NCBI GenBank assembly: GCA_022824835.1
Contig: JAJDZB010000023.1
Span: 14,461-78,460 of the forward strand
Direction of reading: 5' to 3'
Source of the DNA: Candidatus Poribacteria bacterium
Lineage (GTDB): Bacteria; Poribacteria; WGA-4E; WGA-3G
Length of the DNA stretch: 64,000 nucleotides
A model generated the notes under the pieces. It was not told where the DNA came from and made no database searches. It was given only the letters and a program-made list of their open reading frames with translations. The position numbers were made by a program, and so were the translations under genes. Shown here piece after piece: positions 23,131 to 63,492 of the stretch; position 1 is the first letter of the stretch, and every line of letters begins with the position of its first letter.

Positions 23131-23189
23131 TTTCAAATCCAAAAATGTTATAATTGTTCAGACAAATTACACAATAGGAGTGAAATACA

Positions 23190-24819: not shown

Positions 24820-24896
24820 TAATCCTCTCTTATTTCGGTTGTTAGTGAGGGTTCTTCCACTCTTCCATTCTTCCACTCTTCCACTCCTCCAATCTT

Positions 24897-32362: not shown

Positions 32363-32379
32363 ATTCACACCAATTAAGG

Positions 32380-32560
32380 TTGTTCTTCCACCCTTCCACC
32401 CTTCCACCCTTCCATCCTTTCCTCTTATCCTGGTATAATCCTGTAATCCTGAAAATCCTGGTCACCCTTCTACCCTTCCACCCATCCCCTCTTATCCTGG
32501 TATAATCCTGTAATCCTGAAAATCCTGGTCAACCTTCCACCCTTCCAATGACATTTCTTC
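32380..32560. repeat. CTTCCA and ATCCTG low-complexity repeat tract
   Basis: CCACCCTTCCACCCTTCCATCC...CTCTTATCCTGGTATAATCCTGTAATCCTGAAAATCCTGGTCA, twice. Confidence 0.8.
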
Positions 32561-35675: not shown

Positions 35676-35780
35676 GTAATGTTTTCATATAGAAATGGTA
35701 TTATTTCCCATGAAATCAATACCTTCGCCAAAATAAATGCTTTATATTAGCCAACAAACCATTTTGAATAATGTCGAACA

Positions 35781-35860
35781 GCCCCAGCGGGGCGACAGGT
35801 GTATAGAAAATGACTATCCTGCTGAATATAAGCCCCAGCGGGGCGACAGGTGTATAGAAA
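35781..35860. repeat. Two copies of the 30-bp hairpin repeat AGCCCCAGCGGGGCGACAGGTGTATAGAAA, separated by 22 bp
   Basis: Seen directly. Variants GCCTCAGAGAGGCGAAAGGTGTATAG and GCCCCAGAGGGGCGAAAGGTGTATC lie at 28040-28130. The pair sits inside 16-nt inverted repeats (35714-35729 and 35983-35998). Confidence 0.8.
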
Positions 35861-36159: not shown

Positions 36160-38283
36160 TTATCTCTGTCCTTTGATTTTGTTGATCAGTTCGTTGAGAT
36201 ATTGTGATGGAATAGCAAAATTAAGATTTTGACCCTCTGTAATGGTTGAAACTGCAACGCCTATAACCTCTCCTTTGCTATTTAGCACAGGACCGCCACT
36301 GCTACCTTTGGAAATTGGTGCAGTAATCTGTATCCGTTTTTGCCCGATGCGGAACTCACGCACACCACTTACAATCCCATCCGAAAATGTACCTTCCAAA
36401 AATCCTATTGGATTTCCGGATACGTAAATAGTTTCACCTACTTGAACGTTGTTGCTATTGCCGAGTGGAAGGTTCGGCACATCAAAATCTGAAACATACA
36501 GAATGGCGAGGTCCTGCTTTGAATCCATAGCGGCAATACCTAATATAGAGTACTTTTTGTTGGTGCCGACCTGTTTGACATACCCATTGAAAACACCTTC
36601 AACGACGTGTAGGTTGGTGGCGATCATACCTTGTCCAATATAGAAACCACTCCCGGAACTGACAGCCTTGCCATTTGCATCTTGCATGACGATGAGTACT
36701 GTAGAAGTGAGTGAAGTTTTTGCGATCTGTTGAGGAGTTTTTGAAGTTCGGATGTTGGAGGTGACTGCTGAGATGTCTGGCGGCATTTCAATATCTAACG
36801 TAGGTATATCCCATAAGAGAACTGTACCATCCGTACCCCCACTTGATATGGTGTTTCCATCCGGACTAAACACTACACTCTCGACCCAACCCGAATGTCC
36901 GGTAAATGTTCTGAGATGCTGTCCCGTGTGTGCGTTCCACATACGGATAGAGCGGAACAGACCCCCACTTGCGATGGTGTTTCCATCCGGACTGAACACT
37001 ACACTCTCGACTGGACCTGTATGCCCAGTAAGTGTTCTGATGTGTTGTCCTATATGTGTGTTCCACAAACGGATGGTCTTGTCCACACTCCCACTTGCGA
37101 TGGTGTTTCCATCTGGACTAAACGCTACACTTTTGACGCAATCCGTATGTCCAGTAAGTGTTCTGATGTGTTGTCCCGTGTGTGCATTCCACAAACGGAT
37201 AATGTCATCCAACAGACCCCAACTTGCGATGGTGTTTCCATCCGGACTAAACGCCACACTCTTAAGCGTACCCGTATATCCTGTAAGTGTTCTGATATGT
37301 TGTCCTGTGTGTGCATTCCACAAACGGATGGTCTCGTCCCAACTCCCACTTGCAATGGTTTTTCCATCAGGACTGAATACCACACTATCGACCGTACTCG
37401 TATGTCCTGTAAGTGTTCTGATATGCTGTCCTGTATGTGTGTTCCATAAACGGATGGTCTTGTCATATCCCCCACTTGCGATAGTTTTTCCATCCGGACT
37501 GAACACTACGCTCGTGAGTGTATTCGTATGTCCTGTAAGTGTTCTGATGTGTTGTCCCGTGTGTGTGTTCCACATACGGATGGTGTCGTCCCAACTCCCA
37601 CTTGCAATGGTTTTTCCATCAGGACTGAACACTACGCTGTCGACCGAACCCGTATGTCCTGTAAGTGTTCTGATATGCTGTCCTGTGTGCGCATTCCATA
37701 AACGGATAATGTCGTCTAAACACCAACTTGCGATGGTGTTTCCATCAGGACTGAACACTACGCTGGTGACCGAACCCGCATCTCCAGTAAGTGTTCTGAT
37801 ATGCTGTCCTGTGTGCACATTCCACAAACGGATGGTCTTGTCCCAACTCCCACTTGCGATGGTGTTTCTATCAGGACTGAACACTACGCTGTTTACCTGA
37901 CGCGTATGTCCGGTAAGTGTTCTAAGATGCTGTCCTGTGTGTGCGTTCCACAAACGGATGGTCTTGTCCGAACACCAACTTGCGATAGTGTTTCCATCCG
38001 AACTAAACGCCACACTTTCAAGCTTACCCGTATGTCCCATGAATATGAATAGGGCAAGTTCCTTACCTGTCTGTGTGTTGTATATCCAAATGCCAATACT
38101 ACTTGCGACTGCCAACTTAGTGCAATCAGGTGAATATTTTATCTCATGAATTATACCTTTCCCAAGTCGGACTCTCACACCTTCGGGTAAACCCCATTTT
38201 GTGTAATCTTGTGCGGAGGTGTTCAGTAGCCATGTTGTACAAGTCAATAAGAGTGTTATTATGGCAAAGTTTAATTTCTTCAT
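36160..38283 (-). CDS. Secreted WD40-repeat (about 14 units) protein fused to a C-terminal trypsin-like serine protease domain
   Basis: Signal peptide. Near-identical 42-aa WD40 units ([38 protein letters not shown]). The C-terminal [18 protein letters not shown]...[17 protein letters not shown] carries the His and Ser elements of the S1 catalytic triad. Confidence 0.75.
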   Translation of the reverse strand: [707 protein letters not shown]

Positions 38284-39371: not shown

Positions 39372-39600
39372 ACTGAACTAACGTGAGTTTGATAAATCAG
39401 ATTTTCCCAGGCCGGTAGGTTCGGTTTCCTAACCAATTCAGAATACCAAACGCGTATTCTGACGGATCCTGCGCGAAAACCTTTATGAACGCAAGTGGCA
39501 CAAAGCCGGTTCGGTTAGGAAACCGAACCTACCGGGTCTAAGCAAGTGATATTTTGAGGAAAATGAAGTCCATATATCTATCATCAAACTCACTTAAACT
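39372..39600. mobile_element. MITE-family copy 2 (~200 bp, terminal inverted repeat TAACGTGAGTTTGATAA)
   Basis: The left end is TAACGTGAGTTTGATAAATCAGATTTTCCCAGGCCGGTAGGTTCGGTTTCCTAACC. Internally it has the inverted copy GGTTCGGTTAGGAAACCGAACCTACC. The right end is ATCAAACTCACTTAA. It has no coding capacity. Confidence 0.75.
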
Positions 39601-39665
39601 ACAAGAATTACATTAGCTAAAGAAATACAAAGCGATACCTCGCAATACATACCGGGAGGATTGGT

Positions 39666-46771: not shown

Positions 46772-46950
46772 GAATCACCTATCTTCATTATATTCGTAAG
46801 AAACTCACTAAATCCTATTGGATAGAGTATATCATATCACATCTTTCTTTTCTATACATTCATCCATGATTGTGCCCCAGTAATTGTTCCTCTTTGTAGC
46901 ACAAACTTTCCAGTTTGTGTCCCTCGTAGCACATTCTGTTAGATTGTGCA

Positions 46951-47030
46951 AATTCACCGTCCTTCCATCCTTCCACCCTTCCACCCTTCCATTCTGCCAT
47001 CCTTCCATTCTTCCATTCTTCCAGTGCTGG
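46951..47030. repeat. CTTCCA-type microsatellite-like tract
   Basis: CCTTCCATCCTTCCACCCTTCCACCCTTCCATTCTGCCATCCTTCCATTCTTCCATTCTTCCA. A related tract lies at 24841-24900. Confidence 0.8.
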
Positions 47031-47137: not shown

Positions 47138-48217
47138 ATGCGCCATTTCATAACACTGGACGATTTTTCAAACTTTGAAATAGAACAGATCTTCAGATTA
47201 GCAGCAGGAATGCAAACACAATTAGAAACCTGGGCAGGAATCTGCCGTAGCAAACTCTTAGCAACCCTTTTCTATGAACCGAGCACACGTACCCGACTCT
47301 CCTTTGAAAGCGCAATGGAAAGACTCAATGGCGGAACATTAGGATTCGCTGACCCAAATTCTACATCCGCAGCCAAAGGCGAAACGCTCGCGGATACCGC
47401 AAGAATGGTAACGAACTATGCCGACATCATTGTAGTACGGCATAACTGGGCGGGCTCCGCACGTGTAATCGCAAAACATGCAAGTATACCCGTCATCAAC
47501 GGAGGAGATGGAAGCCACGCACATCCAACACAAGCTCTCACCGATCTATATACAATCATTCGCAGAAAATCAAAAGTTCAAGGTTTAACTGTCGGAATCT
47601 GTGGAGACCTACAATACGGACGCGCTGCACATTCCTTCGCTTTAGCAGTCGCAAGATTCGGAGGTAAACTGGTACATATCGCACCAAAAGGTCTACAAAT
47701 GCCAACGTGGCTCCTCACACGATTAACAAAATACCACAAACATCAACCACTTGAGGTGGAAAACATCAAAGACGTAATTGAGAAACTTGATGTAATCTAT
47801 GTAAACAGATTGCAGGAGGAGAGATTGCCACCCTCTGTAGATGCGGCGACAGTTCGAGGAAGTTATCTATTGAATGCTGAAGTGATGAAAAATGCTAAAC
47901 CTGATGCTATGATTATGCATCCGCTTCCTCGTGTAAACGAACTCGCTTATGAATTGGATGATGACCCGCGCGCTGCATATTTTGAACAATCCGCAAATGC
48001 AGTACCCATCCGTATGGCACTTATCTCAAGTCTTATGGGATTACAACAACTCATCTTAACCCAACCGCCAAAACGCAACATAACTGAAGCATCACATCGG
48101 TGTGAAAATCCAAACTGTGTCACAAATCACGAAACGTATCTATTACCTGAACAGGAAACGTTTAATGGCGATACGACAATACAGACCTGTGCATATTGTG
48201 GTAGTTTGATTAAGTGA
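47138..48217 (+). CDS. Aspartate/ornithine-carbamoyltransferase-family catalytic chain fused to a PyrI-like C-terminal zinc domain
   Basis: Carbamoyl-phosphate motif STRTR (FYEPSTRTRLSFE) and HPTQALTDL. The C-terminal CENPNCVTNHE...CAYCG resembles the Zn domain of the aspartate carbamoyltransferase (ATCase) regulatory chain. GAGGAG Shine-Dalgarno site. Confidence 0.6.
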   Translation: MRHFITLDDFSNFEIEQIFRLAAGMQTQLETWAGICRSKLLATLFYEPSTRTRLSFESAMERLNGGTLGFADPNSTSAAKGETLADTARMVTNYADIIVVRHNWAGSARVIAKHASIPVINGGDGSHAHPTQALTDLYTIIRRKSKVQGLTVGICGDLQYGRAAHSFALAVARFGGKLVHIAPKGLQMPTWLLTRLTKYHKHQPLEVENIKDVIEKLDVIYVNRLQEERLPPSVDAATVRGSYLLNAEVMKNAKPDAMIMHPLPRVNELAYELDDDPRAAYFEQSANAVPIRMALISSLMGLQQLILTQPPKRNITEASHRCENPNCVTNHETYLLPEQETFNGDTTIQTCAYCGSLIK

Positions 48218-48223
48218 AAATAC

Positions 48224-49717
48224 CTACTCTTCCTCATCTTCTTCAGCATTAGGCACCTTAGAGATCAATCCATCTTTTTCAATGACTGCCTCACGTGTTG
48301 GCCAATGTGTATCCGCATTTTCCCCAGACGACTGCCAACCACCTTCAAAAAAGGTCATTGTGACAAAATCTTTTTCTGTATCGGGTAAGTTGTCAGGAAA
48401 AGGATTATAAGTTGTCCAATTGGTATAAGTAACCGGTTCACCGCTATCCCATTGCCATACGCCTTCCTTCTCAACATCGTTGAGTCCTATCCAAAACGAA
48501 TGCCTCTGAAATATTGTCTCCACCCAAAACTGTTCCTCTTCGTTGTTTATTGATACGAGATGTGCACCTTCTTTAATCGCTTTCTGTTGTGCATCATACC
48601 AATTTTCACAACTGACTTTTGCATAAGCATGTCCATTCGCGGGGTTAATGATCCAGACAATGTTTTCCGGTTTCCATTCAAGCCGACGAACATTAGGATT
48701 TATTTTTACGTGAGGACGAGCATTTCTTTTTCCCAATAACCCTTGGACAATACTCCGTGCTTTGTCCTCATCAAACTCCTTACTAACTTCCTTCGGTTTT
48801 TTCTTTACCGTAGGACTCCCATTAAGTTTTATGACAAGCTTCTCAGGTTCTTTGTCTTCTGTTAGAACGAAGGGACCTGCACCACCAGTAAATCCTCTAT
48901 GCTCTACAGACAGCGTATAATATCCAGCATTATCTCTATACTCTATGAAATACCCTTTCGCGTCGGTAAAATTATTAGTTCCATAAGAACCACCTTGCGT
49001 TCCAATATCTCCGGTTTCAACGTCCATGTCAAGATCGATTTGTGCATTTGCAACGGGTGTACCATCTGAATACACGACCTGGGCATAGATCTTCATTCTC
49101 TTCTTCACAGTAATTTTAACGTCTTTGATTTTCGCCTTCGGTTTAAGTCCAAACCGAAGGCTCTCAAAAGGTCCATGTCTCTCTTCTGGATAGAAAAAAA
49201 TAAGTTTATTCAGTCGAATAGAAACTAATTTGATACCAGATTCTCCTTTACCAAACATCAGGTGTCTGGGAAAATGAGCAGCTACTTGTGCATTCTGTGC
49301 CTTATGCTCCTGTGGTTCCTTGCTAACTTCAGGTAATGGCATTATCTGGATCTGACCAGGTATGATATTGGGAGCATCAAATTTTCCATCTGCATCTGTT
49401 TCCACCGACAGAAACCTCTGAGGTGTACCCTTTTGAGCGTTTCCTCCTTGCAGTTCTATCCATTCACCATCCTCGCCTCTTACTTCTAATTTAGGAGCAG
49501 GAACTACAAACTGCAGTTGTCTATTTCCATTGTTGGATTCGGATGAATGAATAGAAAACTTGAAACCCGGTAAGGGTTTTCCTTCACTGTCTACAACTAT
49601 TCCAGACAGTCCACACGTTGCACTTTGTTCTGGTTGTTGAATTATCTCTTCAACACTAATGCTTTGCACTGTAAAGCATATTGTAAAAATACAGACTAAA
49701 AGTATTAATTGTTTCAT
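48224..49717 (-). CDS. Secreted protein with carboxypeptidase-regulatory-like beta-sandwich domains and a C-terminal C-type-lectin-like domain; paralogue 4 of the array
   Basis: Start trimmed to the ATG at 49715-49717 (MKQLILLV) after AAGGAG. Signal peptide. The C-type-lectin-like domain motif is WIINPANGHAYAKVSC...EGAHLVSINNEEEQFWV...FWIGLND...W.W.DGEPVTYTNW. Confidence 0.65.
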   Translation of the reverse strand: MKQLILLVCIFTICFTVQSISVEEIIQQPEQSATCGLSGIVVDSEGKPLPGFKFSIHSSESNNGNRQLQFVVPAPKLEVRGEDGEWIELQGGNAQKGTPQRFLSVETDADGKFDAPNIIPGQIQIMPLPEVSKEPQEHKAQNAQVAAHFPRHLMFGKGESGIKLVSIRLNKLIFFYPEERHGPFESLRFGLKPKAKIKDVKITVKKRMKIYAQVVYSDGTPVANAQIDLDMDVETGDIGTQGGSYGTNNFTDAKGYFIEYRDNAGYYTLSVEHRGFTGGAGPFVLTEDKEPEKLVIKLNGSPTVKKKPKEVSKEFDEDKARSIVQGLLGKRNARPHVKINPNVRRLEWKPENIVWIINPANGHAYAKVSCENWYDAQQKAIKEGAHLVSINNEEEQFWVETIFQRHSFWIGLNDVEKEGVWQWDSGEPVTYTNWTTYNPFPDNLPDTEKDFVTMTFFEGGWQSSGENADTHWPTREAVIEKDGLISKVPNAEEDEEE

Positions 49718-49740
49718 CGTCAATACTCCTTGTATATGGT

Positions 49741-49830
49741 TATGTAGTAAAACATACAATTAATGAGACACTTTTGTAGCACACCCCGGTAGGTTCGGTT
49801 TCCTAACCGAACATAATGTCCAATTAATTC
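49741..49830. mobile_element. MITE-related fragment (short variant)
   Basis: GTAAAACATACAATTAATGAGACACTTTTGTAGCACACCCCGGTAGGTTCGGTTTCCTAACCGAAC matches 3975-4050. Confidence 0.55.
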
Positions 49831-49850
49831 TAACTTCTACTATATATTAG

Positions 49851-51128
49851 TTATTCCGTGTTTTCCTCTGATTCAGGTGTGCCTATCATAAGATCAACTT
49901 TTTCTAAAATTGCTCTTTTAGTGATATTCACGAGATGACCATCACTACGCGTTCTTTGCCATTTGCCAGTCACACCGATCAGTACACTGTATTTTGTCTG
50001 ATCTTTCTTTTCTGTATCCTTATCACTTTCAGATATCAGATTATTATCATCCCAATTTGTATAAGTGAGTGGATCCCCATCATCCCACTCCTTATCGTTT
50101 TTCTTTATACCGTCTGTGAATCCTATCCAATAGTTTTCTGCGCCAAAAACACTAAGCAACCACGTCTGTTCAGCTGCATCATTAATTGAAACGAGATGTG
50201 CACCTTCCTCTTTAGCTCTTTCTATCGCTTCTTCTGGAGTCTGACATTCGATCCTTTTGTATGCATGTCTATTGGCTGGGTTGATTGCCCACACACCTTT
50301 GCGTCGACGCTCGTGGAATGCTTGTCTACGTTCAAAATTAGGTTGTCCCTGAATTTCTTGTTTAACCTCTTCTGGTATTTTAGGTTCTTCTATTTTCTCT
50401 TTCAGTTTTAGGGTGAGTCCTTCAAGACGTTGTCCCTGTTCAAGCAATATTTCCTTGGATTCCACAGTCTGCCCCTGATATGTCACAGAAACAGTATAGT
50501 ACGCAGGAGAACTTACATAACGTGTAAACTTTCCTTCTGCATCAAGTGTTCTTGTTCCACCACTACTACCGCCGCCCCCGCTTAATCTTCGTCTTTTGAC
50601 CATCATGTTAACATGAGCATTGCTTAGCGGCACACCATCTGCATCAAGCACTTGTCCACTAATCTTCATACGTAGACGAACGGTAATCTTTACATCCTTA
50701 ATATCGCTCTCCTCTTCAATACCAAAAGGAAATCCTTCATGCATCATACGTCCCAGATGAGACATATAGAAACTAATACCTTGCATCTCTATTGAAATAA
50801 ATTCATAATCTGACTCAAAGCCACCGAACAATTGTAATGCATTCACTGTGGGTGATGTAATATTGTCAATAGAGAACTCACCATTAGCATCACTCTCTGC
50901 AGGTTGCGGGGGAGGGAACACACGTTCATTCATGTTAAACCGGTGCCTATCAGGAATAAACTTTCCTTTATATGAATCTATTGATACCTGCACATCTGGA
51001 ACAGGATTTCCCTCTACATCAACGATTTTACCTGAAAATTTCGCTGCTGAGCAGTAAGGTGCTGCCATCAACATAACAACAAAACTTACGATGGATACAT
51101 AAAATATTGTGAACCCTAAACGACTCAT
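49851..51128 (-). CDS. Secreted carboxypeptidase-regulatory-like plus C-type-lectin-like domain protein; paralogue 3
   Basis: GGAGGAG Shine-Dalgarno site and signal peptide. C-terminal WAINPANRHAYKRIEC...EGAHLVSINDAAEQTWL...YWIGFTDG...W.DGDPLTYTNW. Confidence 0.65.
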   Translation of the reverse strand: MSRLGFTIFYVSIVSFVVMLMAAPYCSAAKFSGKIVDVEGNPVPDVQVSIDSYKGKFIPDRHRFNMNERVFPPPQPAESDANGEFSIDNITSPTVNALQLFGGFESDYEFISIEMQGISFYMSHLGRMMHEGFPFGIEEESDIKDVKITVRLRMKISGQVLDADGVPLSNAHVNMMVKRRRLSGGGGSSGGTRTLDAEGKFTRYVSSPAYYTVSVTYQGQTVESKEILLEQGQRLEGLTLKLKEKIEEPKIPEEVKQEIQGQPNFERRQAFHERRRKGVWAINPANRHAYKRIECQTPEEAIERAKEEGAHLVSINDAAEQTWLLSVFGAENYWIGFTDGIKKNDKEWDDGDPLTYTNWDDNNLISESDKDTEKKDQTKYSVLIGVTGKWQRTRSDGHLVNITKRAILEKVDLMIGTPESEENTE

Positions 51129-51257
51129 CTGATCTCCTCCTCTGGTTATATTAGGTGGGTAAACAAGGGAATTAAATCAATATGAGTATTATACACTATG
51201 GGGAAAGAATAGGCAATAGTAAAGTAGGAGATAGATCAGCGACATGCTGACAAAAAA

Positions 51258-52667
51258 TCATTTCTTTTTGATTGATGCCTTTTCGATTGTTGTAAGTATC
51301 TTAATGTCTCCTTTTTCAATAATTGCAAACTTAGTCATTTGCACAATAACACTCTTAGGACTGACAGCATACCATTTTCCATCAGCAAAAGTAGTAACAA
51401 CGTGCTTTCTTTCAGCGGCATCCCATGTTTCAGAAAAGTAATCATTGGGTAACCAGTTTTTGTATGTGATAGCTTCACCGTTCTGCCATTGCCATCCTGT
51501 CTTATTTTCATCTTTACTGAGTCCTATCCAATAGAATTCATTGCCAAAGACAGAACTTAACCACTCCTGTTCTATCGCATCGTTAATCGTGACAAGATGT
51601 GCTTTCTCTTTGATGGCTTGTGCAATAGCATCGTCACGAGTTTTGCAACGAACTCTCTTATATGCATGCCGGTTTACTGGATTCACAATCCATACTTCGT
51701 TAGATTCAGGTTGTTGTGTTTCCTGTGTCTCTTTCGGATTGGTTTTAGCAGGTTTTACCTCTGTCTTAGGAGGGAGTGGTTTGGGTGCAATCGGTTTACT
51801 ATTAAATGTAAACGACAAACCTGCCAATCTCTCTCCTGGTTCAAGTCGAATAGGTTTGGCAGTTGCTACAAGACCTTGATATTTCACTGAAAACGTGTAG
51901 ATTCTTGTATCTTTTTCTTCGTCAAGATAATAGACAAAACTACCATTACTATCTGTTCGAGGTGTGCCAGATATACGTCTCCTATCATTTTCAAGACTAA
52001 ATTGTGCTTGCATCTCCAACAACGCATTAGAAAGTGGCGTACCATCTTCAAAAACAACCTGTCCTTGAACACGCATACGTGGTTGTACTGTAACCACTAC
52101 GTCTTTTATATGGGAACCCGGCTCAATCCCGAATACAACTTCCCCGGCATCACCAGCTGGATAGAAGGTGATTCCTTTGACGTTAAGAGATAGGATCTCC
52201 ACGTCTGGCTCAAAATCATCGTAACCGAAACCGAAATTATTCGCAATAAAAACATCAATATAGTCTGGATGGAGCATTGCATCATCCAAAGACAGAAATT
52301 CTTCAAGTTTTTTTTCATAGTCAGGTGGTAAACGCTCATCTATGTTGTAGGAGAGTGTCCCGAAGTAAAATGATCCTTTTGGTATACCGGTTATAGAAAA
52401 CTGACCTTTTTCATCAGTCTGAGCCCGACGCAACAAGAAAAAGTCATTAGGCAAATTTACCTTTGATCCCCAACTATTATTGATGATTTCCAAGGGAGCG
52501 ATAAATAGTGGCAAATTCTGAACAGGATGTCCATTTATATCAACAAAACGTCCACTAACGCTTGCAGTGCCTTCCTGATCAATACTATATGAAGTAAGTC
52601 CAGGGACATGTATCAGAATTGGCATGAGCAATATAGTAACGCTGAGTCTAAAAAATAAACGTATCAT
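51258..52667 (-). CDS. Secreted carboxypeptidase-regulatory-like plus C-type-lectin-like domain protein; paralogue 2
   Basis: Start trimmed to the ATG at 52665-52667 (MIRLFF) after GAAGGAG. It starts ~60 bp below the stop of the sigma-fusion gene. C-terminal WIVNPVNRHAYKRVRC...KAHLVTINDAIEQEWL...YWIGLS...W.W.NGEAITYKNW. Confidence 0.65.
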   Translation of the reverse strand: MIRLFFRLSVTILLMPILIHVPGLTSYSIDQEGTASVSGRFVDINGHPVQNLPLFIAPLEIINNSWGSKVNLPNDFFLLRRAQTDEKGQFSITGIPKGSFYFGTLSYNIDERLPPDYEKKLEEFLSLDDAMLHPDYIDVFIANNFGFGYDDFEPDVEILSLNVKGITFYPAGDAGEVVFGIEPGSHIKDVVVTVQPRMRVQGQVVFEDGTPLSNALLEMQAQFSLENDRRRISGTPRTDSNGSFVYYLDEEKDTRIYTFSVKYQGLVATAKPIRLEPGERLAGLSFTFNSKPIAPKPLPPKTEVKPAKTNPKETQETQQPESNEVWIVNPVNRHAYKRVRCKTRDDAIAQAIKEKAHLVTINDAIEQEWLSSVFGNEFYWIGLSKDENKTGWQWQNGEAITYKNWLPNDYFSETWDAAERKHVVTTFADGKWYAVSPKSVIVQMTKFAIIEKGDIKILTTIEKASIKKK

Positions 52668-52730
52668 ACGGTGTTCTCCTTCAAAAGTATTTGTAAAGTG
52701 GTGCAATAAATCAGATTCCATAAAACCAAA

Positions 52731-54794
52731 CTATTCCTCATCTGACCAATTTTCCTTCTCAAGTAGTGTAGTTTGTACCCATCGCCATTCTATACTCTCA
52801 GGACCAATATCCACCCATCCTTGCATAGTTAGAATAACATAATCCTCATCACCATTGTCAGAGTCATCGGGTTCATCCTCTGCCCAATTAGTGTATTCTA
52901 CAGATTCGCCATTGTGCCACTTCCACACTCCTTCTTCTTCAATATCGTTGAGACCAATCAGTATTCTGTCTGGTAGGAAAACTTTCTTTATCCACTCCTG
53001 TTCTGCCTCATCATTAATTCTGACCAGATAAGCACCTTCTGCTGTGCTTTGGAGAATAGCATCCTCAGGACTACGAGACCGGATTTTTTTGTATGCATGA
53101 CCATTTAATGGATTTACTACCCACACGTCTTGTGCGTCAAGACCGCTATAGACTGATGCACTTGCTTGTAATCTGTTTGGAACGTCCTTCGGTGATGGCG
53201 GAATGACGGGTGAATTGAACATAAAGACAGCGTTGTGAGTTCTATATCCAGGTTTAACCACAATTGGTTTCAACATTGCACGCTGCCCTTGATAATCCAC
53301 AGACATTATGTAAAAAGCGGGTCCATTGATATGGGATGGAACATATTGTATGAAATTCCCTTCAATATCTGTCCTTGTTCCAAAACCAATATTACTCTCT
53401 CCCATTCCATCCAGACCTAATTGATTTACATTGAATTCTATGTGTGCATTGGCTACTGGCGTTTCGTCCATGTGTAAAACTGTCCCTTGGATTCTTAGAA
53501 AGTGTGTGACCGCCACTTCTATGTTTTCAATCTTTTCTATTGATTCCGGTGCAAACACAATCCCAGAACCGATCATATTATCGATTGAATAAAAAGAAAT
53601 ACCACCAATCTTTAACTTCAATACTTGAGCTATCGGTTTATAATAGGGTAATACGCCAAATGCGTATGGACCTTGGTTGATTGCCTTGATGGTGAAATCT
53701 CCATTGGAATTAACCTCCGCAGGGAACGCTAATGGGTCATCGGGCCAGTCCTGGTCCTCATCTACAGGTATTGGAAACCACCCTCCATTGTTATATTCTA
53801 CAGGGATTATAGCTAACTTGACATCGCTCGCTGGATTCCCGCTATCATCAACTACATGACCGCTTGCTGAGAAGGATGAGTCCACATTAGGTTCCTGAAT
53901 TGTACCTTCGCTCTCATTAGGTGCATCCGCATGACCAATCTGATTTTGCACATCAGGATCAGATGGCAGATTTGTCATTACAGATGCATCAACAATGTCA
54001 ACTGTCAGTTCAGTTGTCGTGTCAAGACTGTAGGGTTGCTGAAAACGGGCAGAATGTTGGGCACCAAGTCCAAGCATCAACACCACCAAAACAAAAGTTG
54101 AAGTAGCAACTACCCACGGTATAAATGGTTTGCTACCGGAAGGGTTAGTGGGGTCAATCTGTGCACCAGTTTCGTTGATGGTTCGGATTATGTTTTCTGT
54201 CAAATTTGTTGATGGTTGATAACTTCCTAAGGTTTCCCTTATCATGTGTTCCTCCTTTTGTAATCGCTGTCGGGCACGATGGAGACGGCTTTTCACCGTA
54301 TTCAACGATACACCCAAAAAATCACTAATTTCTTTAATCGAACTCCCAGCGAGATAATGCAGCGTTATGACGACCCGTTCACTCTCAGGTAGTTTTTGAA
54401 GAAGCCGGTCAACGAGATCAATTCGCCTCTCTAATGCTCTCTCTTCAAGCTGTTGATCCATATATTCTGAATAGCGTTGTCTTTCAAGTTCTACTTCAGG
54501 CAAGTCTTCTAAGGACTGCATTTCTACGCTTCTTTTTTCAAACCAAGTCTTACACAGACGATTCGCTATCACATAAAGCCATCCTGCAAATAGATTTGGA
54601 TTCTTCAATTTACCAAGATTCCTGTAAGCTCTGAGGAAGGTATCTTGCGTAATCTCTTCAGCTATATGAAAATCTCCGATTTTACGCCACGCAAGGGCAT
54701 GGACACGTTCTTGGTATCTCTGCACAAGCTCGGTAAAAGCGTTCTGATCACCAGATAACGTACGATTGATCAGATCATAATCAGTGGTTTCCAT
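52731..54794 (-). CDS. ECF sigma factor (regions sigma-2 and sigma-4) fused through one transmembrane helix to two carboxypeptidase-regulatory-like domains and a C-type-lectin-like domain
   Basis: Sigma-2 is FTELVQRYQERVHALAWRKIGDFHIAEEITQDTF...WLYVIANRL. Sigma-4 is LPESERVVITLHYLAGSSIKEISDFLGVSLNTVKSRLHRAR. The transmembrane helix is IPWVVATSTFVLVVLMLGLGA. The C-terminal WVVNPLNGHAYKKI...EGAYLVRINDEAEQEWI is paralogous to the three downstream genes. GGAGAAG Shine-Dalgarno site. Confidence 0.7.
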   Translation of the reverse strand: METTDYDLINRTLSGDQNAFTELVQRYQERVHALAWRKIGDFHIAEEITQDTFLRAYRNLGKLKNPNLFAGWLYVIANRLCKTWFEKRSVEMQSLEDLPEVELERQRYSEYMDQQLEERALERRIDLVDRLLQKLPESERVVITLHYLAGSSIKEISDFLGVSLNTVKSRLHRARQRLQKEEHMIRETLGSYQPSTNLTENIIRTINETGAQIDPTNPSGSKPFIPWVVATSTFVLVVLMLGLGAQHSARFQQPYSLDTTTELTVDIVDASVMTNLPSDPDVQNQIGHADAPNESEGTIQEPNVDSSFSASGHVVDDSGNPASDVKLAIIPVEYNNGGWFPIPVDEDQDWPDDPLAFPAEVNSNGDFTIKAINQGPYAFGVLPYYKPIAQVLKLKIGGISFYSIDNMIGSGIVFAPESIEKIENIEVAVTHFLRIQGTVLHMDETPVANAHIEFNVNQLGLDGMGESNIGFGTRTDIEGNFIQYVPSHINGPAFYIMSVDYQGQRAMLKPIVVKPGYRTHNAVFMFNSPVIPPSPKDVPNRLQASASVYSGLDAQDVWVVNPLNGHAYKKIRSRSPEDAILQSTAEGAYLVRINDEAEQEWIKKVFLPDRILIGLNDIEEEGVWKWHNGESVEYTNWAEDEPDDSDNGDEDYVILTMQGWVDIGPESIEWRWVQTTLLEKENWSDEE

Positions 54795-54878
54795 GCATCT
54801 TCTCCAAAATTGGATACTTTAAAATATAAAGACTCTGATATTAGTGGCAAAGGTTGCATAAAATGAATTAATTCTAAA

Positions 54879-55076
54879 CGTGAGTTTGATAAATCAGATT
54901 TTCCCAGGCCGGTAGGTTCGGTTTCCTAACCGAACCTGATCCTACGCGAAAACCTTTATGAACGCAAGTGGCACAAAGCAGGTTCGGTTAGGAAACCGAA
55001 CCTACCGGGTCTATGCAAGTGATATTTTGGGCAAAATGAAGTCCATATACCTATTATCAAACTCACGTTAATTCTA
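54879..55076. mobile_element. MITE-family copy 3, full length with perfect 17-bp terminal inverted repeats TAACGTGAGTTTGATAA
   Basis: Left end TAACGTGAGTTTGATAAATCAG... and right end ...TTATCAAACTCACGTTA. The internal long palindrome is present. It lies in the promoter region of the ECF-sigma fusion gene. Confidence 0.8.
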
Positions 55077-55269
55077 ACAATTCTAAAAAAATGAAGAAGA
55101 TAGGAATAATCCCAAGGATAACTGTAAAGAAGTGATTTTCTGAAAAAAGATAAACTTCGTTAATTCTCCCATTTAGAACGTATTTCTTATTTTACACTAA
55201 CCGCAATTTTACATGAGTGGGTAACATATAGCAATAGAAAATGTGTGGTCGTTGGTGTAAAATGTATGG

Positions 55270-55350
55270 GATTTCATAAGCTCTTAATAGTAGTAGGCAC
55301 ACTCCGAGTGCCGTCTCTTATGAATAAAGATGACAAAACATTTACATACC
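55270..55350. repeat. Composite repeat: GGCACACTCCGAGTGCC hairpin plus GATGACAAAACATTTACATACC motif
   Basis: TTCATAAGCTCTTAATAGTAGTAGGCACACTCCGAGTGCCGTCTCTT is near-identical to 28171-28260. It sits ~90 bp upstream of the dehydratase gene. Confidence 0.75.
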
Positions 55351-59601: not shown

Positions 59602-62600
59602 ATGCAGACTTTTTTCCAACATTCTCATACCGATAAAATGGAAGAAGATACACACAACGGTGAGGAGGTAGATGATCAGGACCAACCAGAGTCTGAACAC
59701 TCACATGAAACAACAGAACCAACTACTACAGAACCTGACGAAGAGAATATAGATGCGGATACATCTGATGACACGCAAGAAACAAATGAAACTGAAACAG
59801 CTCCTGAAGAAACAACCCCAGCTGTTCCAGAAGATGAACCACCAAAACAAGATAATGAAACAGACGAGGTAGACAAAACATCGGAATCTGAGGAAGAAAC
59901 AGAAGAAATTCCTCAGGCTAAGGACGAAAATACTAATGAAGTTGACCAAACAACCGATGCTGAACAGACAGATGCTACACAGAACACGACAGAAGAACCA
60001 ACAATAGCAGAAGTTTATGAAGTGTCAGATGTTGAAGAAGCAACCGTAATAGAAGATACAGCCGAAACGCTCGAAACATCAGACGAAGTTGAAGATAAAA
60101 CAGACGAAGTTGAAGATATAACAGAACCGCCTGAACCACAAATCCAGTTTTCTCTCGGTGAAAGTGAAGAATTGTATGATTTTGTGGCTACGTTCAAGGA
60201 AAGTGAATGCACCGGATCAGAAAATATTTCGGTCAACATGGCAGATTCATCTGGGGGTATCACAAAACCTGCTATTCTTGAACATCCACCATCAAACGGT
60301 GTGTCGCGTATCATCTATGAATTAGATTTGCCGCCGACTGAAGAAAATGCGAATCTCCACCTCTATTTCAATATTGGTCTTAGAGATGGTGTCGTATTTG
60401 ATGATCCGAATAGACACCCTGACGGCGTCAAGTTCTCTATTGAGATCGCAGGTGAAAAGTGTTTTGAGTCCATATCCACAGAATGTCAGTGGACACCCTA
60501 TAACGTAGATATTACCCGTTTTGCTGGACAGAAGGTTCAGATCGTCCTTATGACTGAATGCAATGTTGAGGGTAATAGCAACTACGCCTGGGGATTGTGG
60601 GGACACCCAAAACTTATCAAGCTCACTAAACCTGACAGACAACAGGAACACCCTTCAGTAATCCAATGTGGAATTGCATTTGCGACTTTGCCTGAAGATC
60701 GTACAGCTCTGATCGAATTCAATGTTGATAAGTTGACACCAACACACGAAATAATGGCTATCATCCAACAAGAATTAGAAGTAGAGCCTACCGAAATAAC
60801 ACTCTATGTAGCACAACCGAAATTAGAGATCGTCAGTGTAGGATCGACAGCAGCAGTCGTCAGTACGGGAGAAGCGTTTGAAGTCCAATGCACAATCAGA
60901 AACATCGGGGTAGGCCCCCTCTTAGCGAACAATAAGACTCGACTAAGTATCAGCGATATTAAGTTACGTAGGGGTAGATCATCACAAAACGTTAAATCTA
61001 TCGCTCCAGGTGAGACAACTACCCTTATCTGGTACGCACGTGGTGTTTCACGACCAACTACGCTCAATTTTAACGTCTCACTCAAATCTCGTCATGTCCA
61101 AGGTAAAGGGAAAAAAGAGGGAACCATTGAAATTCGACCAGCAGTTCCAAAACTTGAAGCACAAGTAGAGACCGAATTACATACTTATATGCATAGAGAA
61201 CATGCTGTCATCGGGAATAAGTATCTCAGAGTCGTTCTTGTCCATAGTGGTGACATATTCCAATCCATCAATAGAAGACCAAAAAAGAACCTACCAGAAA
61301 AACATGAAACGGGATACGAGTTTTATGCTATTTATGTGGCAAAAGGAAGTACATATCAACAGGTCGCAACATCTAAAATGATCGCAATGGCGACATACCT
61401 ATCAGATGGAACAAGGCATAACCTACAATTTGTTCCCGATAACATTCAACTGTCTGGGAACAGTCTGGGAGAAGCCATCATCCGTTTATCTGGTGAGCAC
61501 CAAGACATAGATGGCGTAACCTGGAAATTGCAGCTACAATTTGTTCTTACGGAGGAAGCAAAACGAATCAAAGCGACATATAATTTGCAGGTTGATGCTG
61601 AACGCGAGCTTCTTGCATTCCATGGCACAGAAATATATGCTGGACACAAGAGTACTCGCGAAAAGAAAACAGCAGCTCTATTCCCCGGACTGGAGTTCCT
61701 TCAGGAAGACGAACCTTCATCAAATACACGGGATGCAGCACCTCCTATAAACAATAGGTTAGTTCCTCATCCCTATAAAATCACTATTCCTGTGATGGCG
61801 GTTGAAATGCAGAAGTCTGTAGTTGGTATCGCTTGGGATCCTATGGAAAGTTGGGACGGAAATGAACAGAATCTGTCCGCTATTTTTGCTTCCCCCAACT
61901 GGCACGATCATCAGAGAAACCATCTGATGGGTCTATTTCTGCCCACCGTACCAAATTGGGTTAATGAGAATGAACAGTTCGCTGAAAACACATATCAGAT
62001 GACACCAGAACGTCCAATCTCACTTACATGTGAAATTATAGCGGATGGGAATGCTTCAATTCTCGATGTAATACCACATTGGATTACTGCCTACGGAATC
62101 CCTAAACCGGTTGAACCTCCACGGGATGATGTAGAGGAGATTGAACTCTCACGACACGGTTTTATGCACACTGTCTGGGATGCAGAAAAAAGGCAATCCA
62201 GACACTGTGTAGATTGGGATTCACGAAACGAACCGAGTTTCGCAACTTTACTCTGGTACGATTACCTTGTGACACAGGCTGAAGATGTAAAACAACGTGT
62301 GGCTGAGATAGCTGACAAAACAATTGCAGATAGTGGTGCCGTTGGTTTAGCTGGACGCGGTTCATGTCATATCCTCGGTGGTGAGTTTCCGTTCTATTAT
62401 GGACATTTAGATGCGGCGTTAACACGGTATGAAGCCGAAGTTCAACCACTACTTGAATCGCAAGCGAAGGACGGTAGTTGGAGTTTTCAACCCGCTTCCG
62501 AGAGAACGAAAAGTCTCGGTAAAACCGGTGATGCTGTTCTCGGAACATGTGCAGCGAACGCACTTAAACTGCTCAAACATGCACGCATCACACGACACAA

Positions 62601-63492
62601 CACCTCTCTTGATGCTGGTAGAAAAGCACTCTCTTTTATGGACCGATTTTTTGTTCCCCGCGGCGCACAAGCCTGGGAATGTCCCTTGTATCAACCGGAT
62701 CTCCTCGCAGCTGCACATGCAGTTGGTGCTTATGTGGAAGCACATCAGATAACTGGTAATAAGTCGTATCTCAGACGCGCAGAATACTGGGCAAACGCGG
62801 GACTCCCATTCCTCTATCATTGGCATCTACCAGATCGTCCGGGAATGCTCTACGCTTCAATACCTGTTTTTGGAACAACCTTTTATACACACCCCTGGTT
62901 CGGTGTCCCAGTTCAATGGAACGGGTTAGTCTATGCATACTATCTACAACGGCTCAATCAATACGCAAAAGACGATAAATGGCAGAAAATCGCTGAAGGA
63001 ATTACCACCAGTGCAATGTATCAGCAGTGGACAGATGGTGAGCTAAAAGGAACATATCCCGACGGATTCTACGGGTTCTGTACTGAAGGGAAAGGCCCAC
63101 ATCTTAATCCAGAAGATATTATGGCTAATGTCTACTCGCTACGGGGTCTCGATCCGGGTGTTAAGACCGTAATTGCAGGTTCTATTCATCTCAGTTCTGG
63201 GGCAATACCTGATGCCGTCTCAACTTCTCGGAACGGAACAGTCAATTGGTCTCTAAACTATGCTGAAAATGAGACAAGCCACACGTTGATTGTAGGTTAT
63301 GATAAACCCCCATCTGCTATCACCGCACGCGGAACCAAGAGTGATGAAACTGACAATTCAGAATTTGAAATACCACAAGTTGACGTTTTAGAAGAGGTCA
63401 CATCGGGATGGCAATATATCACAGAAAAAGACGCAATCCTGATTAAACAGATTCATACCACAACTGATATGCAGTTTCAACTAAAAAAATAG
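59602..63492 (+). CDS. Large multidomain protein with an acidic disordered N-terminus, beta-rich middle domains and a C-terminal (alpha/alpha)6-toroid-like region, possibly a glycoside hydrolase or lyase
   Basis: 1296 aa. The first ~180 residues are D/E/T-rich low complexity with no signal peptide. AAAGGAG Shine-Dalgarno site. The C-terminal helical repeats are rich in W, Y and G (WANAGLPFLYHWH...). Confidence 0.4.
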   Translation: MQTFFQHSHTDKMEEDTHNGEEVDDQDQPESEHSHETTEPTTTEPDEENIDADTSDDTQETNETETAPEETTPAVPEDEPPKQDNETDEVDKTSESEEETEEIPQAKDENTNEVDQTTDAEQTDATQNTTEEPTIAEVYEVSDVEEATVIEDTAETLETSDEVEDKTDEVEDITEPPEPQIQFSLGESEELYDFVATFKESECTGSENISVNMADSSGGITKPAILEHPPSNGVSRIIYELDLPPTEENANLHLYFNIGLRDGVVFDDPNRHPDGVKFSIEIAGEKCFESISTECQWTPYNVDITRFAGQKVQIVLMTECNVEGNSNYAWGLWGHPKLIKLTKPDRQQEHPSVIQCGIAFATLPEDRTALIEFNVDKLTPTHEIMAIIQQELEVEPTEITLYVAQPKLEIVSVGSTAAVVSTGEAFEVQCTIRNIGVGPLLANNKTRLSISDIKLRRGRSSQNVKSIAPGETTTLIWYARGVSRPTTLNFNVSLKSRHVQGKGKKEGTIEIRPAVPKLEAQVETELHTYMHREHAVIGNKYLRVVLVHSGDIFQSINRRPKKNLPEKHETGYEFYAIYVAKGSTYQQVATSKMIAMATYLSDGTRHNLQFVPDNIQLSGNSLGEAIIRLSGEHQDIDGVTWKLQLQFVLTEEAKRIKATYNLQVDAERELLAFHGTEIYAGHKSTREKKTAALFPGLEFLQEDEPSSNTRDAAPPINNRLVPHPYKITIPVMAVEMQKSVVGIAWDPMESWDGNEQNLSAIFASPNWHDHQRNHLMGLFLPTVPNWVNENEQFAENTYQMTPERPISLTCEIIADGNASILDVIPHWITAYGIPKPVEPPRDDVEEIELSRHGFMHTVWDAEKRQSRHCVDWDSRNEPSFATLLWYDYLVTQAEDVKQRVAEIADKTIADSGAVGLAGRGSCHILGGEFPFYYGHLDAALTRYEAEVQPLLESQAKDGSWSFQPASERTKSLGKTGDAVLGTCAANALKLLKHARITRHNTSLDAGRKALSFMDRFFVPRGAQAWECPLYQPDLLAAAHAVGAYVEAHQITGNKSYLRRAEYWANAGLPFLYHWHLPDRPGMLYASIPVFGTTFYTHPWFGVPVQWNGLVYAYYLQRLNQYAKDDKWQKIAEGITTSAMYQQWTDGELKGTYPDGFYGFCTEGKGPHLNPEDIMANVYSLRGLDPGVKTVIAGSIHLSSGAIPDAVSTSRNGTVNWSLNYAENETSHTLIVGYDKPPSAITARGTKSDETDNSEFEIPQVDVLEEVTSGWQYITEKDAILIKQIHTTTDMQFQLKK

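Follow-up and report, generated by a model that had tools for sequence, protein, structure and literature searches.

A membrane-tethered ECF sigma factor with a C-type-lectin-like ectodomain in Candidatus Poribacteria: a candidate one-polypeptide sensor

The gene sigF lies in a 64,000-nucleotide stretch of DNA (the window) from Candidatus Poribacteria, a sponge symbiont, and encodes in one polypeptide an ECF sigma factor, a single transmembrane (TM) helix and an ectodomain of two beta-sandwiches and a C-type-lectin-like domain (CTLD). Judged by sequence, it belongs to a family that joins one signalling module with many sensor domains, so far found in Poribacteria only. We consider it fairly likely that sigF is a transmembrane sensor made of one polypeptide, which controls its own transcription and is probably switched on by proteolytic release, a reading drawn from sequence features and from analogy with known systems.

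All four of the reverse-strand ORFs named in a preliminary description of this DNA are present (4/4). The largest, sigF, is a single uninterrupted ORF of 687 amino acids with the following parts:

52731-54794 (-): sigF, membrane-tethered ECF sigma factor with an ectodomain of two beta-sandwiches and a CTLD
54528-54728 (-): sigma region 2, aa 23-89 (Pfam Sigma70_r2, E 1e-12)
54255-54416 (-): sigma region 4, aa 127-180 (Pfam Sigma70_r4_2, E 2e-18)
54123-54254 (-): cytoplasmic linker of 44 aa, aa 181-224, with a conserved helix LTENI(I/M)R and a PSGSKP motif
54057-54122 (-): single TM helix, aa 225-246 (Kyte-Doolittle peak and invariant columns)
53895-54056 (-): juxtamembrane motif, predicted periplasmic, aa 247-300, RFQxPYSxDAxSEMTVEIV(E/D)A...NLPSxPxVRNQxG
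53214-53882 (-): two beta-sandwich domains, aa ~305-415 and ~420-527 (AF2 pLDDT 75-93)
52749-53132 (-): CTLD, aa ~555-682 (Pfam Lectin_C, phmmer, Foldseek)

The sigma part is that of an ECF (group 4) member of the sigma-70 family and is SigW/RpoE-like. Matches to Sigma70_r2, Sigma70_r4_2 and Sigma70_ECF all exceed the Pfam cut-offs, the Sigma70_r4_2 match spanning aa 127-178, and TIGR02937 (sigma70-ECF) scores 89.4 bits against a cut-off of 42.9; the best NCBIfam equivalog is SigW (113 bits, under its cut-off of 209). Foldseek matches to this part are AlgU, SigW and sigmaE. Column identity in region 2 is 0.76-0.88 across 88 aligned homologues, and region 4 is modelled with a pLDDT of 80-92 in the N-terminal AF2 model.

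The search proposed earlier for other proteins combining an ECF sigma domain, a TM helix and a CTLD returned at least 88 homologues with the full-length architecture (35-100% identity), drawn from independent assemblies that include complete chromosomes of 5-6.7 Mb. Because they share this architecture, a frameshift artefact is excluded and the continuous frame described previously holds. The suspicion that a sequencing error joined a sigma gene to a secreted lectin-like gene, or that the fusion is an annotation artefact or a decaying pseudogene, has nothing in its favour beyond prior doubt. It is already refuted by this conservation and by the strongly conserved linker, TM helix and juxtamembrane segment, and we give it practically no credence. 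In the alignment the TM helix falls on the signal peptides of the secreted paralogues, which offers a way in which evolution could have produced such a fusion.

Hydropathy, Pfam and AF2 together bear out the preliminary view of a single protein comprising sigma-2, sigma-4, a TM helix, sandwiches and a CTLD, with the sigma factor tethered by one membrane pass and the CTLD extracytoplasmic. TM and signal-peptide calls were based on hydropathy and conserved AxA motifs. The Kyte-Doolittle profile has one peak only (2.2, at aa 225-243), which lies between sigma-4 and the sandwiches as the topology check required, and P223, P226 and G242 at the helix ends are invariant. The structure predictions likewise show two confident sandwiches at aa 308-525 and the CTLD at aa 558-680. 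They place helices at aa 179-190 and 196-209 in the linker region (N-terminal model), but the linker, TM helix and juxtamembrane segment lack confident structure (pLDDT < 50), and for this reason neither a cleavage site nor docking can be assigned. In the juxtamembrane segment pLDDT is ~30 with no predicted fold, and its ~50 aa are too short for a SEAL domain of ~120 aa.

At 44 aa the linker is below the size of a class-I anti-sigma domain. Pfam searches recognised no anti-sigma domain between sigma-4 and the TM helix, with no match in sigF to zf-HC2 or RskA at E <= 1 and none to FecR, and sequence inspection found no Cys or His cluster in the linker. Tethering is thus the only apparent hold on the uncleaved sigma.

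The juxtamembrane motif is common to family members with unrelated ectodomains and is without counterpart in the secreted paralogues. In a set of 1.84e9 representative proteins nearly every match to it falls at residues ~176-295 and follows a sigma domain, and the few others are short fragments. The module of sigma domain, linker, TM helix and juxtamembrane segment forms 236 clusters at 50% identity, so far in Poribacteria only; 174 ORFs in 81 loci bear it, with at least 14 copies in one chromosome. On this same module we found CTLDs, extra sandwiches, WD40, Sortilin/BNR propellers, Trypsin plus TPR, AhpC/redoxin and Big_5.

Within the ectodomain of sigF itself, the two sandwiches stand as previously described, but the name given to them, CarbPepD_reg, was loose: the first has no significant Pfam match, CarboxypepD_reg is matched in sigF only below threshold, and Foldseek finds both to resemble pilin/prealbumin-like sandwiches. 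The C-terminal domain is a genuine C-type-lectin-like domain. Lectin_C matches aa 586-649 of sigF with 31.1 bits against a cut-off of 22.6, and PF00059 is above this gathering score in all four proteins of the locus (31.1, 44.4, 41.5 and 50.1 bits). A phmmer search of the PDB gave the mannose receptor (E 5e-19), and Foldseek aligned the domain to the 2ox8 CRD (TM 0.79, rmsd 2.3 A, 32% identity). Where canonical domains have EPN...E...WND, sigF has EPD...DEDY...WVD, and across orthologues the fused CTLD shows E-P-x-D with variable x and W-[E/K]-D. The acidic Ca-site-like residues (E-P-x-D, E-D, W-x-D), whose retention in all four CTLDs had been raised as a question, are kept only in the sigma-fused domain; the motif is lost altogether in the three paralogues. 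The four canonical disulfide cysteines are all missing. With neither EPN/QPD and WND conserved nor the disulfides in place, sigF was not classed as a Ca2+-dependent carbohydrate-binding C-type lectin, and since the canonical EPN/WND triad is not conserved the ligand class cannot be read from the motif.

Three secreted paralogues of this ectodomain, here P+1, P+2 and P+3, follow sigF on the same strand:

51258-52667 (-): P+1, signal peptide, two sandwiches and CTLD; 63 nt 3' of sigF
49851-51128 (-): P+2, secreted paralogue of 425 aa with an AxA signal peptide; an orthologous clade
48224-49717 (-): P+3, secreted paralogue with an SD-supported ATG at 49717

The P+1 ORF is open to 52721 and that of P+3 to 49759 (TTG), but the better starts are 52667 (SD GAAGGAG) and 49717 (SD AAGGAG). 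With these starts, the three successive gaps from sigF to P+3 are 63, 129 and 133 nt, in keeping with the 60-130 bp first reported. The tandem arrangement of secreted paralogues was also confirmed: each aligns to the entire fused ectodomain (30-34% identity; phmmer E 1e-40 to 1e-56) and is hydrophobic at its N terminus, where orthologues keep AxA-type cleavage sites. In P+2, CarboxypepD_reg scores 50.6 bits and Lectin_C 41.5 bits. The CTLD of each paralogue has a separate loop signature.

Four further features of the locus concern its transcription and its mobile elements:

54831-54858 (-): ECF-type promoter of sigF, -35 TGCAAC(C), 16-17 nt spacer, -10 GAGTC
51188-51216 (-): sigma-70-type promoter of P+2, TTGCCT-17-TATAAT
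54877-55069 (no strand assigned): MITE copy, 193 bp, 16-bp TIR AACGTGAGTTTGATAA, flanked by TAGAATT
49745-49808 (no strand assigned): MITE-related fragment in the P+2/P+3 spacer

The putative sigF promoter lies ~35 nt 5' of the ATG. It reads TGCAACC-N16-GAGTC; the strict match is unique in the window (0.02 expected), and we found no target promoter there besides sigF's own. The form TGCAACC/TGAAACC/TGCACC...G[AC]GTC precedes 14 of 14 CTLD-type sigma genes of other species, and in 1.6 Mb of related loci 26 of the 33 strict matches are just 5' of family sigma genes, for which the motif is thus highly specific. The gap between sigF and P+1, 27-63 nt at this conserved locus, contains no terminator or promoter motif, and P+1 is probably co-transcribed with sigF. 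The P+2/P+3 unit has its own conserved sigma-70-type promoter, TTGCC[AT]-17-TATAAT being kept 5' of the P+2 orthologues in three related loci (L002, L004 and L006).

CTLD-type sigma genes occupy a syntenic locus with P+1, P+2 and P+3 alongside. A +1 paralogue is found in 13 of 14 CTLD-type loci (gap to the sigma gene 10-63 nt in the main group), and in L004 the pair of sigF and P+1 is duplicated as a unit. Because the sigma gene and each of the three paralogues form old orthologous clades in synteny, the four-gene set is, on these sequence comparisons, an anciently conserved cassette. The recent rearrangement suggested in the preliminary description is not borne out; the MITE insertions alone are recent. 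Across the syntenic loci compared we found no conserved protease gene, and four syntenic loci contain no receptor gene near sigF.

Both MITE sequences, the copy 5' of the sigma gene and the fragment between the last two paralogues, were found as described. The element is a MITE by its TIRs, its flanking TAGAATT, its several copies and the empty site in L005; further copies at 4018-4158 and 39379-39609 bring the window to three copies and a fragment. The upstream copy ends 19 nt 5' of the sigF -35 element, leaving the promoter intact, and is absent from L005 (module identity 93%), while the spacer fragment is absent from L004 (85%); these are the closest relatives fetched for the respective comparisons. 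In relatives without the fragment the P+2/P+3 spacer is only 27-34 nt.

The three secreted paralogues do not appear to be equivalent, P+1 being the conserved and apparently co-transcribed partner. Of the roles suggested earlier, simple decoys for the same ligand are argued against by the lost Ca-site-like residues and the individual loop signatures, and P+2 and P+3, with their own sigma-70-type promoter, are not obviously regulated output. The co-receptor role is retained as a proposal for P+1.

The idea of a sensor gains from two observations: in paralogues this N-terminal module is joined to a wide range of ectodomains, and a conserved ECF-type promoter precedes sigF. In the mechanism we propose, the cytoplasmic sigma domain would be tethered to the inner membrane through the single TM helix, with the juxtamembrane segment, the two sandwich spacers and the CTLD following in the periplasm, the CTLD as the sensing tip. 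By analogy with IutY, ECF52 and RsgI, a signal at the ectodomain would trigger a first cut in or close to the juxtamembrane segment and a second one inside the membrane, freeing the sigma domain to bind RNA polymerase. The next step has support from the sequence: the freed sigma would recognize its own conserved ECF-type promoter, a positive autoregulation that would drive sigF together with P+1. We infer that P+1 assists the sensor in the periplasm, as a co-receptor or as an RseB-like protector; P+2 and P+3, from their separate promoter, are more probably made constitutively and serve this system as lectin-like proteins of the periplasm or surface.

Two other readings of the locus were weighed against this one. 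Through homotypic or heterotypic contacts with its secreted paralogues, the fused ectodomain might report their amount or assembly state, and would then control a periplasmic or surface lectin-like complex homeostatically rather than sense an external ligand. Sensor and neighbours are indeed paralogues from end to end, all four lineages have stayed together since before species divergence, and P+1 accompanies the sigma gene 1:1 and was duplicated with it in L004. However, an adjacent sigma-less paralogue is absent for most BNR-propeller-type (84 of 104) and WD40-type (24 of 41) members, so that paralogue sensing cannot be the family's general mode, and transcription of P+2 and P+3 appears independent of the sigma. 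We regard such a self-monitoring circuit as unlikely.

Somewhat less probable still is that the sigma works from the membrane while still tethered, in the manner of ToxR or CadC, with ligand or oligomerisation altering the recruitment of RNA polymerase to nearby DNA. Oligomerisation is common among CTLDs and beta-sandwich stalks, and the undetectable anti-sigma domain in the linker and the lack of a conserved protease gene in the locus would both fit. A sigma factor, however, has to join the RNA polymerase holoenzyme and move through initiation, and the conserved Pro/Gly at the TM ends, together with the shared juxtamembrane segment, resemble a common processing module. The fused ECFs studied so far (IutY, SCO4117) also all indicate that loss of the tail activates them (PMC8999054, PMC5826349). 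Proteolytic release, our preferred reading, has precedents in IutY and ECF48/52/53 (PMC8999054), SCO4117 (PMC5826349) and RsgI (PMC10556640, PMC10328401).

Proteins of this architecture class, an ECF sigma with a TM helix and a sensor tail, have been described from other phyla. ECF52, exemplified by SCO4117 of Streptomyces coelicolor, resembles sigF in placing an ECF sigma, a TM helix, an extracytoplasmic spacer and a carbohydrate-binding-type sensor on one polypeptide, an analogy of architecture only; positive autoregulation and proteolytic excision have been proposed for it (PMC5826349, PMC8999054). Between sigma-4 and the TM segment ECF52 proteins carry a zinc-finger anti-sigma domain (pfam13490); their spacer is proline-rich, their sensor is a CBM, and the group is confined to Actinobacteria. 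The sigF linker, with neither a zf-HC2 match nor a Cys/His cluster, does not place it in ECF52, and the juxtamembrane motif, beta-sandwich spacers, CTLD, secreted-paralogue cassette and different phylum set it further apart.

IutY of Pseudomonas putida (ECF243) likewise fuses a sigma and a membrane-spanning sensor, and its release by site-1 (Prc) and site-2 (RseP) proteolysis was shown experimentally, the truncated sigma being constitutively active (PMC8999054). IutY is, however, a FecI-FecR fusion signalled by a TonB-dependent receptor, whereas sigF has no FecR by Pfam and no receptor gene in the four syntenic loci, and was therefore not assigned to this hybrid type.

For the CTLD, animal domains (mannose receptor family, SRCL, Endo180) give significant sequence and fold matches and have the WIGL core motif in common with sigF, whose E-P-x-D, E-D and W-x-D stand at their Ca2+/sugar-site positions. 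The animal domains have the four canonical cysteines that sigF lacks, and sigF orthologues have E or K in place of the N of WND.

The planctomycete ECF01-Gob group consists of phylum-expanded ECF paralogues with long C-terminal extensions bearing WD40 repeats (PMC8567305, PMC4937300). The poribacterial family shows a similar phylum-wide expansion and has many members with a TM helix and WD40, although sigF itself bears a CTLD; this comparison is one of published descriptions. Ectodomain diversity and a secreted cassette are unmentioned for ECF01-Gob in these two sources.

In the SigI/RsgI systems of Firmicutes, an anti-sigma domain, a TM helix and a juxtamembrane module are combined with interchangeable sensors in many paralogues per genome, and signalling proceeds by site-1 cleavage at the juxtamembrane domain and then by RseP (PMC10556640, PMC10328401, PMC12203970). 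RsgI is a separate anti-sigma for a sigma-I-type factor, whereas in sigF the sigma itself is fused, and the RsgI SEAL is a folded, autoproteolytic domain, largely of Firmicutes, in contrast to the short conserved segment of sigF. Both nonetheless pair a conserved signalling module with swappable extracytoplasmic sensors, a common design logic.

The four minus-strand open reading frames of the cluster are present as the preliminary description had them. The sigma gene, sigF, occupies 52731-54794 (-) and encodes 687 residues, in which the following features were found:

aa 23-89, Sigma70_r2 (Pfam match)
aa 127-178, Sigma70_r4_2 (Pfam match)
aa 225-246, sole hydrophobic stretch, FIPWVVATSTFVLVVLMLGLGA (Kyte-Doolittle 2.2)
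aa 586-649, Lectin_C (31.1 bits versus a cut-off of 22.6)

The general ECF model TIGR02937 scored 89 bits (cut-off 43), and CarboxypepD_reg gave sub-threshold matches only. The hydrophobic stretch begins 44 residues past sigma-4. In an AlphaFold2 model built with 90 family sequences, two beta-sandwiches (aa 308-525) and the C-type-lectin-like domain (CTLD, aa 558-680) were confidently predicted; sigma-2, the linker, the transmembrane (TM) helix, and the juxtamembrane part were not confidently modelled, either in the full protein or in aa 1-310, and the sigma domain as a whole came out poorly in the full-protein model. Foldseek searches against the PDB matched the N terminus to AlgU, SigW, and sigmaE (27-32% identity), the middle to Gram-positive pilin-type sandwiches, and the C terminus to the human scavenger-receptor C-type lectin CRD (TM 0.79, rmsd 2.3 A, 32% identity). 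An identical database entry exists, and the named relatives of sigF all come from Candidatus Poribacteria. Full-length sigma-TM-CTLD homologues range from 100% down to 35% identity, and the frame is unbroken, as had been proposed. Read from its sequence features, sigF very probably crosses the membrane once, with the ECF sigma factor in the cytoplasm and an extracytoplasmic sandwich-sandwich-CTLD ectodomain.

Some relatives share the first ~300-530 residues of sigF and then differ, ending in a WD40 propeller or in two extra sandwiches where sigF has the CTLD. We scanned species-representative genomes with the shared module (sigma-linker-TM-juxtamembrane; sigF aa 120-305) and obtained at least 570 confirmed matches. 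Of the best 78 loci, most are named as Poribacteria MAGs, and on the basis of these 78 and of the source names of sigF homologues the module is so far confined to Poribacteria. Across 81 loci, 174 ORFs carry the sigma, TM, and juxtamembrane parts, often two to five in tandem, and a single chromosome holds at least 14. Their ectodomains are most often Sortilin/BNR-type propellers (~89, the largest group), followed by WD40 (~43) and sandwiches with a CTLD (14), with smaller groups of Trypsin_2+TPR, AhpC/redoxin, Big_5, and CarboxypepD_reg alone.

An exhaustive HMMER search with the linker-TM-juxtamembrane segment only (sigF aa 176-300) against 1.84 billion representatives, which superseded a word-indexed protein search with that segment (10 candidates, 4 short matches), returned 236 clusters, 180 of them at E <= 1e-10. 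In nearly all 236 clusters the match falls at residues ~176-295, straight behind the sigma domain, a placement which argues that the segment is a dedicated piece of a sigma-linked signalling module. An alignment of 88 CTLD-type proteins showed where the module is conserved:

cytoplasmic helix LTENIMREI, conserved
PSGSKP motif ahead of the TM helix, conserved
P223, P226, and G242 at the ends of the TM helix, invariant
~45-residue periplasmic segment RFQxPYSxDAxSEMTVEIVEA...NLPSxPDVRNQxG, strongly conserved

This periplasmic juxtamembrane segment, for which AlphaFold2 predicted no confident fold, is absent from the secreted paralogues and present in family members with unrelated ectodomains. Pfam detected no anti-sigma domain in sigF, and a class-I anti-sigma domain would not fit into its 44-aa linker.

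Several related loci from other genomes (L numbers here and below) add to the picture of the family. At L016:3000-20536, L033, and L036, up to five genes for membrane-tethered sigma factors stand in same-strand tandem within 20 kb, with differing ectodomains (WD40, propeller, other). The ectodomain is a trypsin-like protease with TPR in the member at L031:9638-12634 and an AhpC/TSA redoxin in that at L051:9617-11788, which suggests sensing via catalytic-type folds. The window itself encodes a 707-aa WD40-repeat protein with at least nine repeats and a 126-nt DNA periodicity (36160-38283, -), and a 380-aa WD40-repeat protein with an adjoining TPR protein (20627-21769, +; 21803-22945, +). WD40 is a common ectodomain of the poribacterial sigma family; these window proteins lack the sigma module.

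Downstream of sigF lie three paralogue genes, P+1, P+2, and P+3 in that order. Their proposed paralogy was confirmed by alignment of each protein with the entire fused ectodomain at 30-34% identity (E 1e-40 to 1e-56). Each begins with a hydrophobic signal-like segment, and the signal peptides of all three paralogue clades are typical cleavable ones (e.g., HS[IV]AQ, C[SF]A|A). Shine-Dalgarno-supported starts at 52667 for P+1 and 49717 for P+3 give intergenic gaps of 63, 129, and 133 nt. The fusion gene holds a syntenic place in relatives whose fusion proteins are 71%, 56%, and 47% identical, flanked on one side by a mandelate-racemase-like gene and two xylose-isomerase-like TIM-barrel genes and on the other by an aspartate/ornithine carbamoyltransferase gene, with three to at least seven secreted paralogues per locus. 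A sigma-less paralogue follows directly on the same strand in 13 of 14 further CTLD-type fusions (gap of 10-63 nt in their main group), and L004 carries two sigma + P+1 pairs.

Other features of the locus were also noted. The carbamoyltransferase gene (47138-48217, +) and P+3 (end 48224, -) converge, their stop codons just 6 nt apart, and the junction (48217-48224) has no terminator-like hairpin. A 1296-aa ORF at 59602-63492 (+) has no Pfam match at E <= 1e-5, and in L001 the equivalent place, on the same flank of the locus, is taken by a 1323-aa gene for which no Pfam match is recorded. We rejected a conserved neighbouring protease; a Trypsin_2-PDZ gene lies 5 kb off in L001 alone.

A neighbour-joining tree of all ectodomains placed the fused domain, P+1, P+2, and P+3 in four separate cross-species clades. 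This topology argues that the four-gene set is ancient, and it refutes recent tandem duplication. One secreted paralogue (L003:7144-8397), 47% identical to the adjoining sigma-fused ectodomain, is nested in the clade of sigma-fused ectodomains and apparently arose recently as a copy of the sensor ectodomain freed from the fusion.

The preliminary description had taken MITE sequences near sigF as a sign of recent rearrangement. Both elements are real and belong to a 193-bp family with 16-bp terminal inverted repeats (AACGTGAGTTTGATAA) and an inner 30-bp perfect palindrome (CCGGTAGGTTCGGTTTCCTAACCGAACCTG), inserted at TAGAATT-like sites:

4018-4158, MITE copy
39379-39609, MITE copy
54877-55069, MITE copy upstream of sigF
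~49745-49808, MITE fragment in the P+2/P+3 spacer

The upstream copy stops 19 nt short of the -35 element; L005, the closest of the relatives compared (module 93% identical), has an empty site there. The fragment adds length to the P+2/P+3 spacer, which in relatives is short. The insertions are recent and incidental, and rearrangement of the cluster itself did not hold up against the ancient cross-species clades.

The window contains further intergenic repeats. A REP-like hairpin repeat, GGCAC(T/A)CTCCGAGTGCCGTC, occurs twice (28170-28255, 55267-55315), once in the sigF upstream region, and both copies follow a common sequence of ~30 nt. An 8-nt unit (CTTCCACC and variants) is repeated in short tandem arrays at 24851-24903, 32374-32500, and 46943-47027. 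Hairpin-containing repeat pairs of ~30-43 nt, 49-53 nt apart (e.g., AGCCCCAGCGGGGCGACAGGTGTATAGAAA), look like another small intergenic family with four sites (14951-15042, 27641-27732, 28044-28126, 35780-35860). A further family, CCTCTTATCCTGG...AATCCTGAAAATCCTGGTC (20276-20417, 22948-23131, 32421-32547), flanks the WD40/TPR gene pair, among other sites.

An ECF-type promoter, TGCAACC-N16-GAGTC, lies at 54858-54831, ~35 nt upstream of the sigF ATG, with the classic ECF design of a -35 AAC and a -10 CGTC-like element. It is the one strict match in the window, where the search for extra copies as regulon candidates gave chance-level matches inside coding regions only. The element (TGCAACC/TGAAACC/TGCACC ... 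G[AC]GTC) is conserved ahead of all CTLD-type sigma genes examined; of the 33 strict matches across 1.6 Mb of related loci, 26 sit just upstream of family sigma genes. Such a promoter indicates positive autoregulation of sigF. The short sigF/P+1 gap contains a ribosome-binding site only and no terminator-like hairpin. P+2 orthologues have a conserved promoter, TTGCC[AT]-17-TATAAT, and P+2 and P+3 are 27-34 nt apart in relatives. This layout of promoters and gaps suggests two likely transcription units, sigF-P+1 from the ECF promoter and P+2-P+3 from a housekeeping-type promoter. P+1 is conserved and probably co-transcribed with sigF.

Each ectodomain clade has a distinct signature in the CTLD long-loop region. 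The fused CTLD retains E-P-x-D, (D/E)-E-D, and W-x-D where animal lectins have EPN, E, and WND; in P+1 the acidic-site residues give way to NWLPNDYFSE...KWYAVSPKS, and in P+2 and P+3 to other conserved sequences. Among fused orthologues the third EPN position varies and E or K replaces the N of WND, and the canonical disulfide cysteines of C-type lectins are absent. Given these residues, classical Ca2+-dependent sugar binding cannot be assumed. The loop sequences are conserved inside each clade, and on that ground we rejected hypervariable DGR-type CTLDs.

How sigF might be activated can be considered by analogy with IutY, ECF48/52/53, and RsgI (PMC8999054, PMC5826349, PMC10556640, PMC10328401, PMC12203970). 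A signal at the ectodomain would permit cleavage near the conserved juxtamembrane segment, and intramembrane cleavage would then set the sigma domain free. We lean slightly towards this proteolytic release. P+1 could be a periplasmic partner of the sensor, either a co-receptor or an RseB-like protector. Of the roles first suggested for the paralogues, that of decoys for the sensor's own ligand is disfavoured by the differing loop signatures and the lost acidic site.

On rival readings, sigF could act while still tethered, in a ToxR-like manner, or it could form a self-monitoring circuit for the paralogues. A third reading, that the fusion is a frameshift artefact, is excluded by the full-length homologues at 35-100% identity. 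At its broadest, and rather improbably, the family may be a phylum-specific "plug-in" system, in which one sigma-TM-juxtamembrane module combined with dozens of sensors replaces much separate sigma/anti-sigma wiring, and the CTLD sensor with co-evolving secreted paralogues (P+1 obligate) reads glycans of animal type or matrix components from the sponge host.

Only a few groups are known to have ECF sigma factors that carry their own membrane sensor, and hardly any of these proteins have been studied; here one uncultivated, sponge-associated phylum reuses a single signalling module with many sensor types. The clear autoregulatory promoter of sigF would ease reporter assays. The CTLD branch adds a eukaryote-like lectin domain as a bacterial transcriptional sensor and ancient secreted sensor paralogues, one apparently co-transcribed. 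If these modulate the sensor, they would be a new means to tune regulated proteolysis, and should the CTLD read host glycans, there would be a concrete way into sponge symbiont-host recognition. Were both the plug-in and host-glycan readings true, sigF would be a direct circuit from host sensing to transcription, with a previously undescribed paralogue-assisted mechanism.

ECF sigma factors joined via a TM segment to an extracytoplasmic sensor are an established class, including ECF52 SCO4117 (with a carbohydrate-binding module), IutY, ECF48/53, and the WD40-tailed ECFs of Planctomycetes (PMC8567305, PMC4937300). Unlike ECF52, which is defined by a zinc-finger anti-sigma domain, sigF has none, and it has neither the FecR domain nor the TonB-dependent receptor that define IutY. 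At title and abstract level, the papers found on Poribacteria with sigma factors or C-type lectins dealt with neither sigma-factor fusions nor bacterial CTLD proteins of this phylum. Three aspects of the family appear new: a module with a conserved juxtamembrane motif and a broad ectodomain repertoire, so far in Poribacteria only; a canonical CTLD serving as the sensor; and an anciently conserved cassette of secreted ectodomain paralogues.
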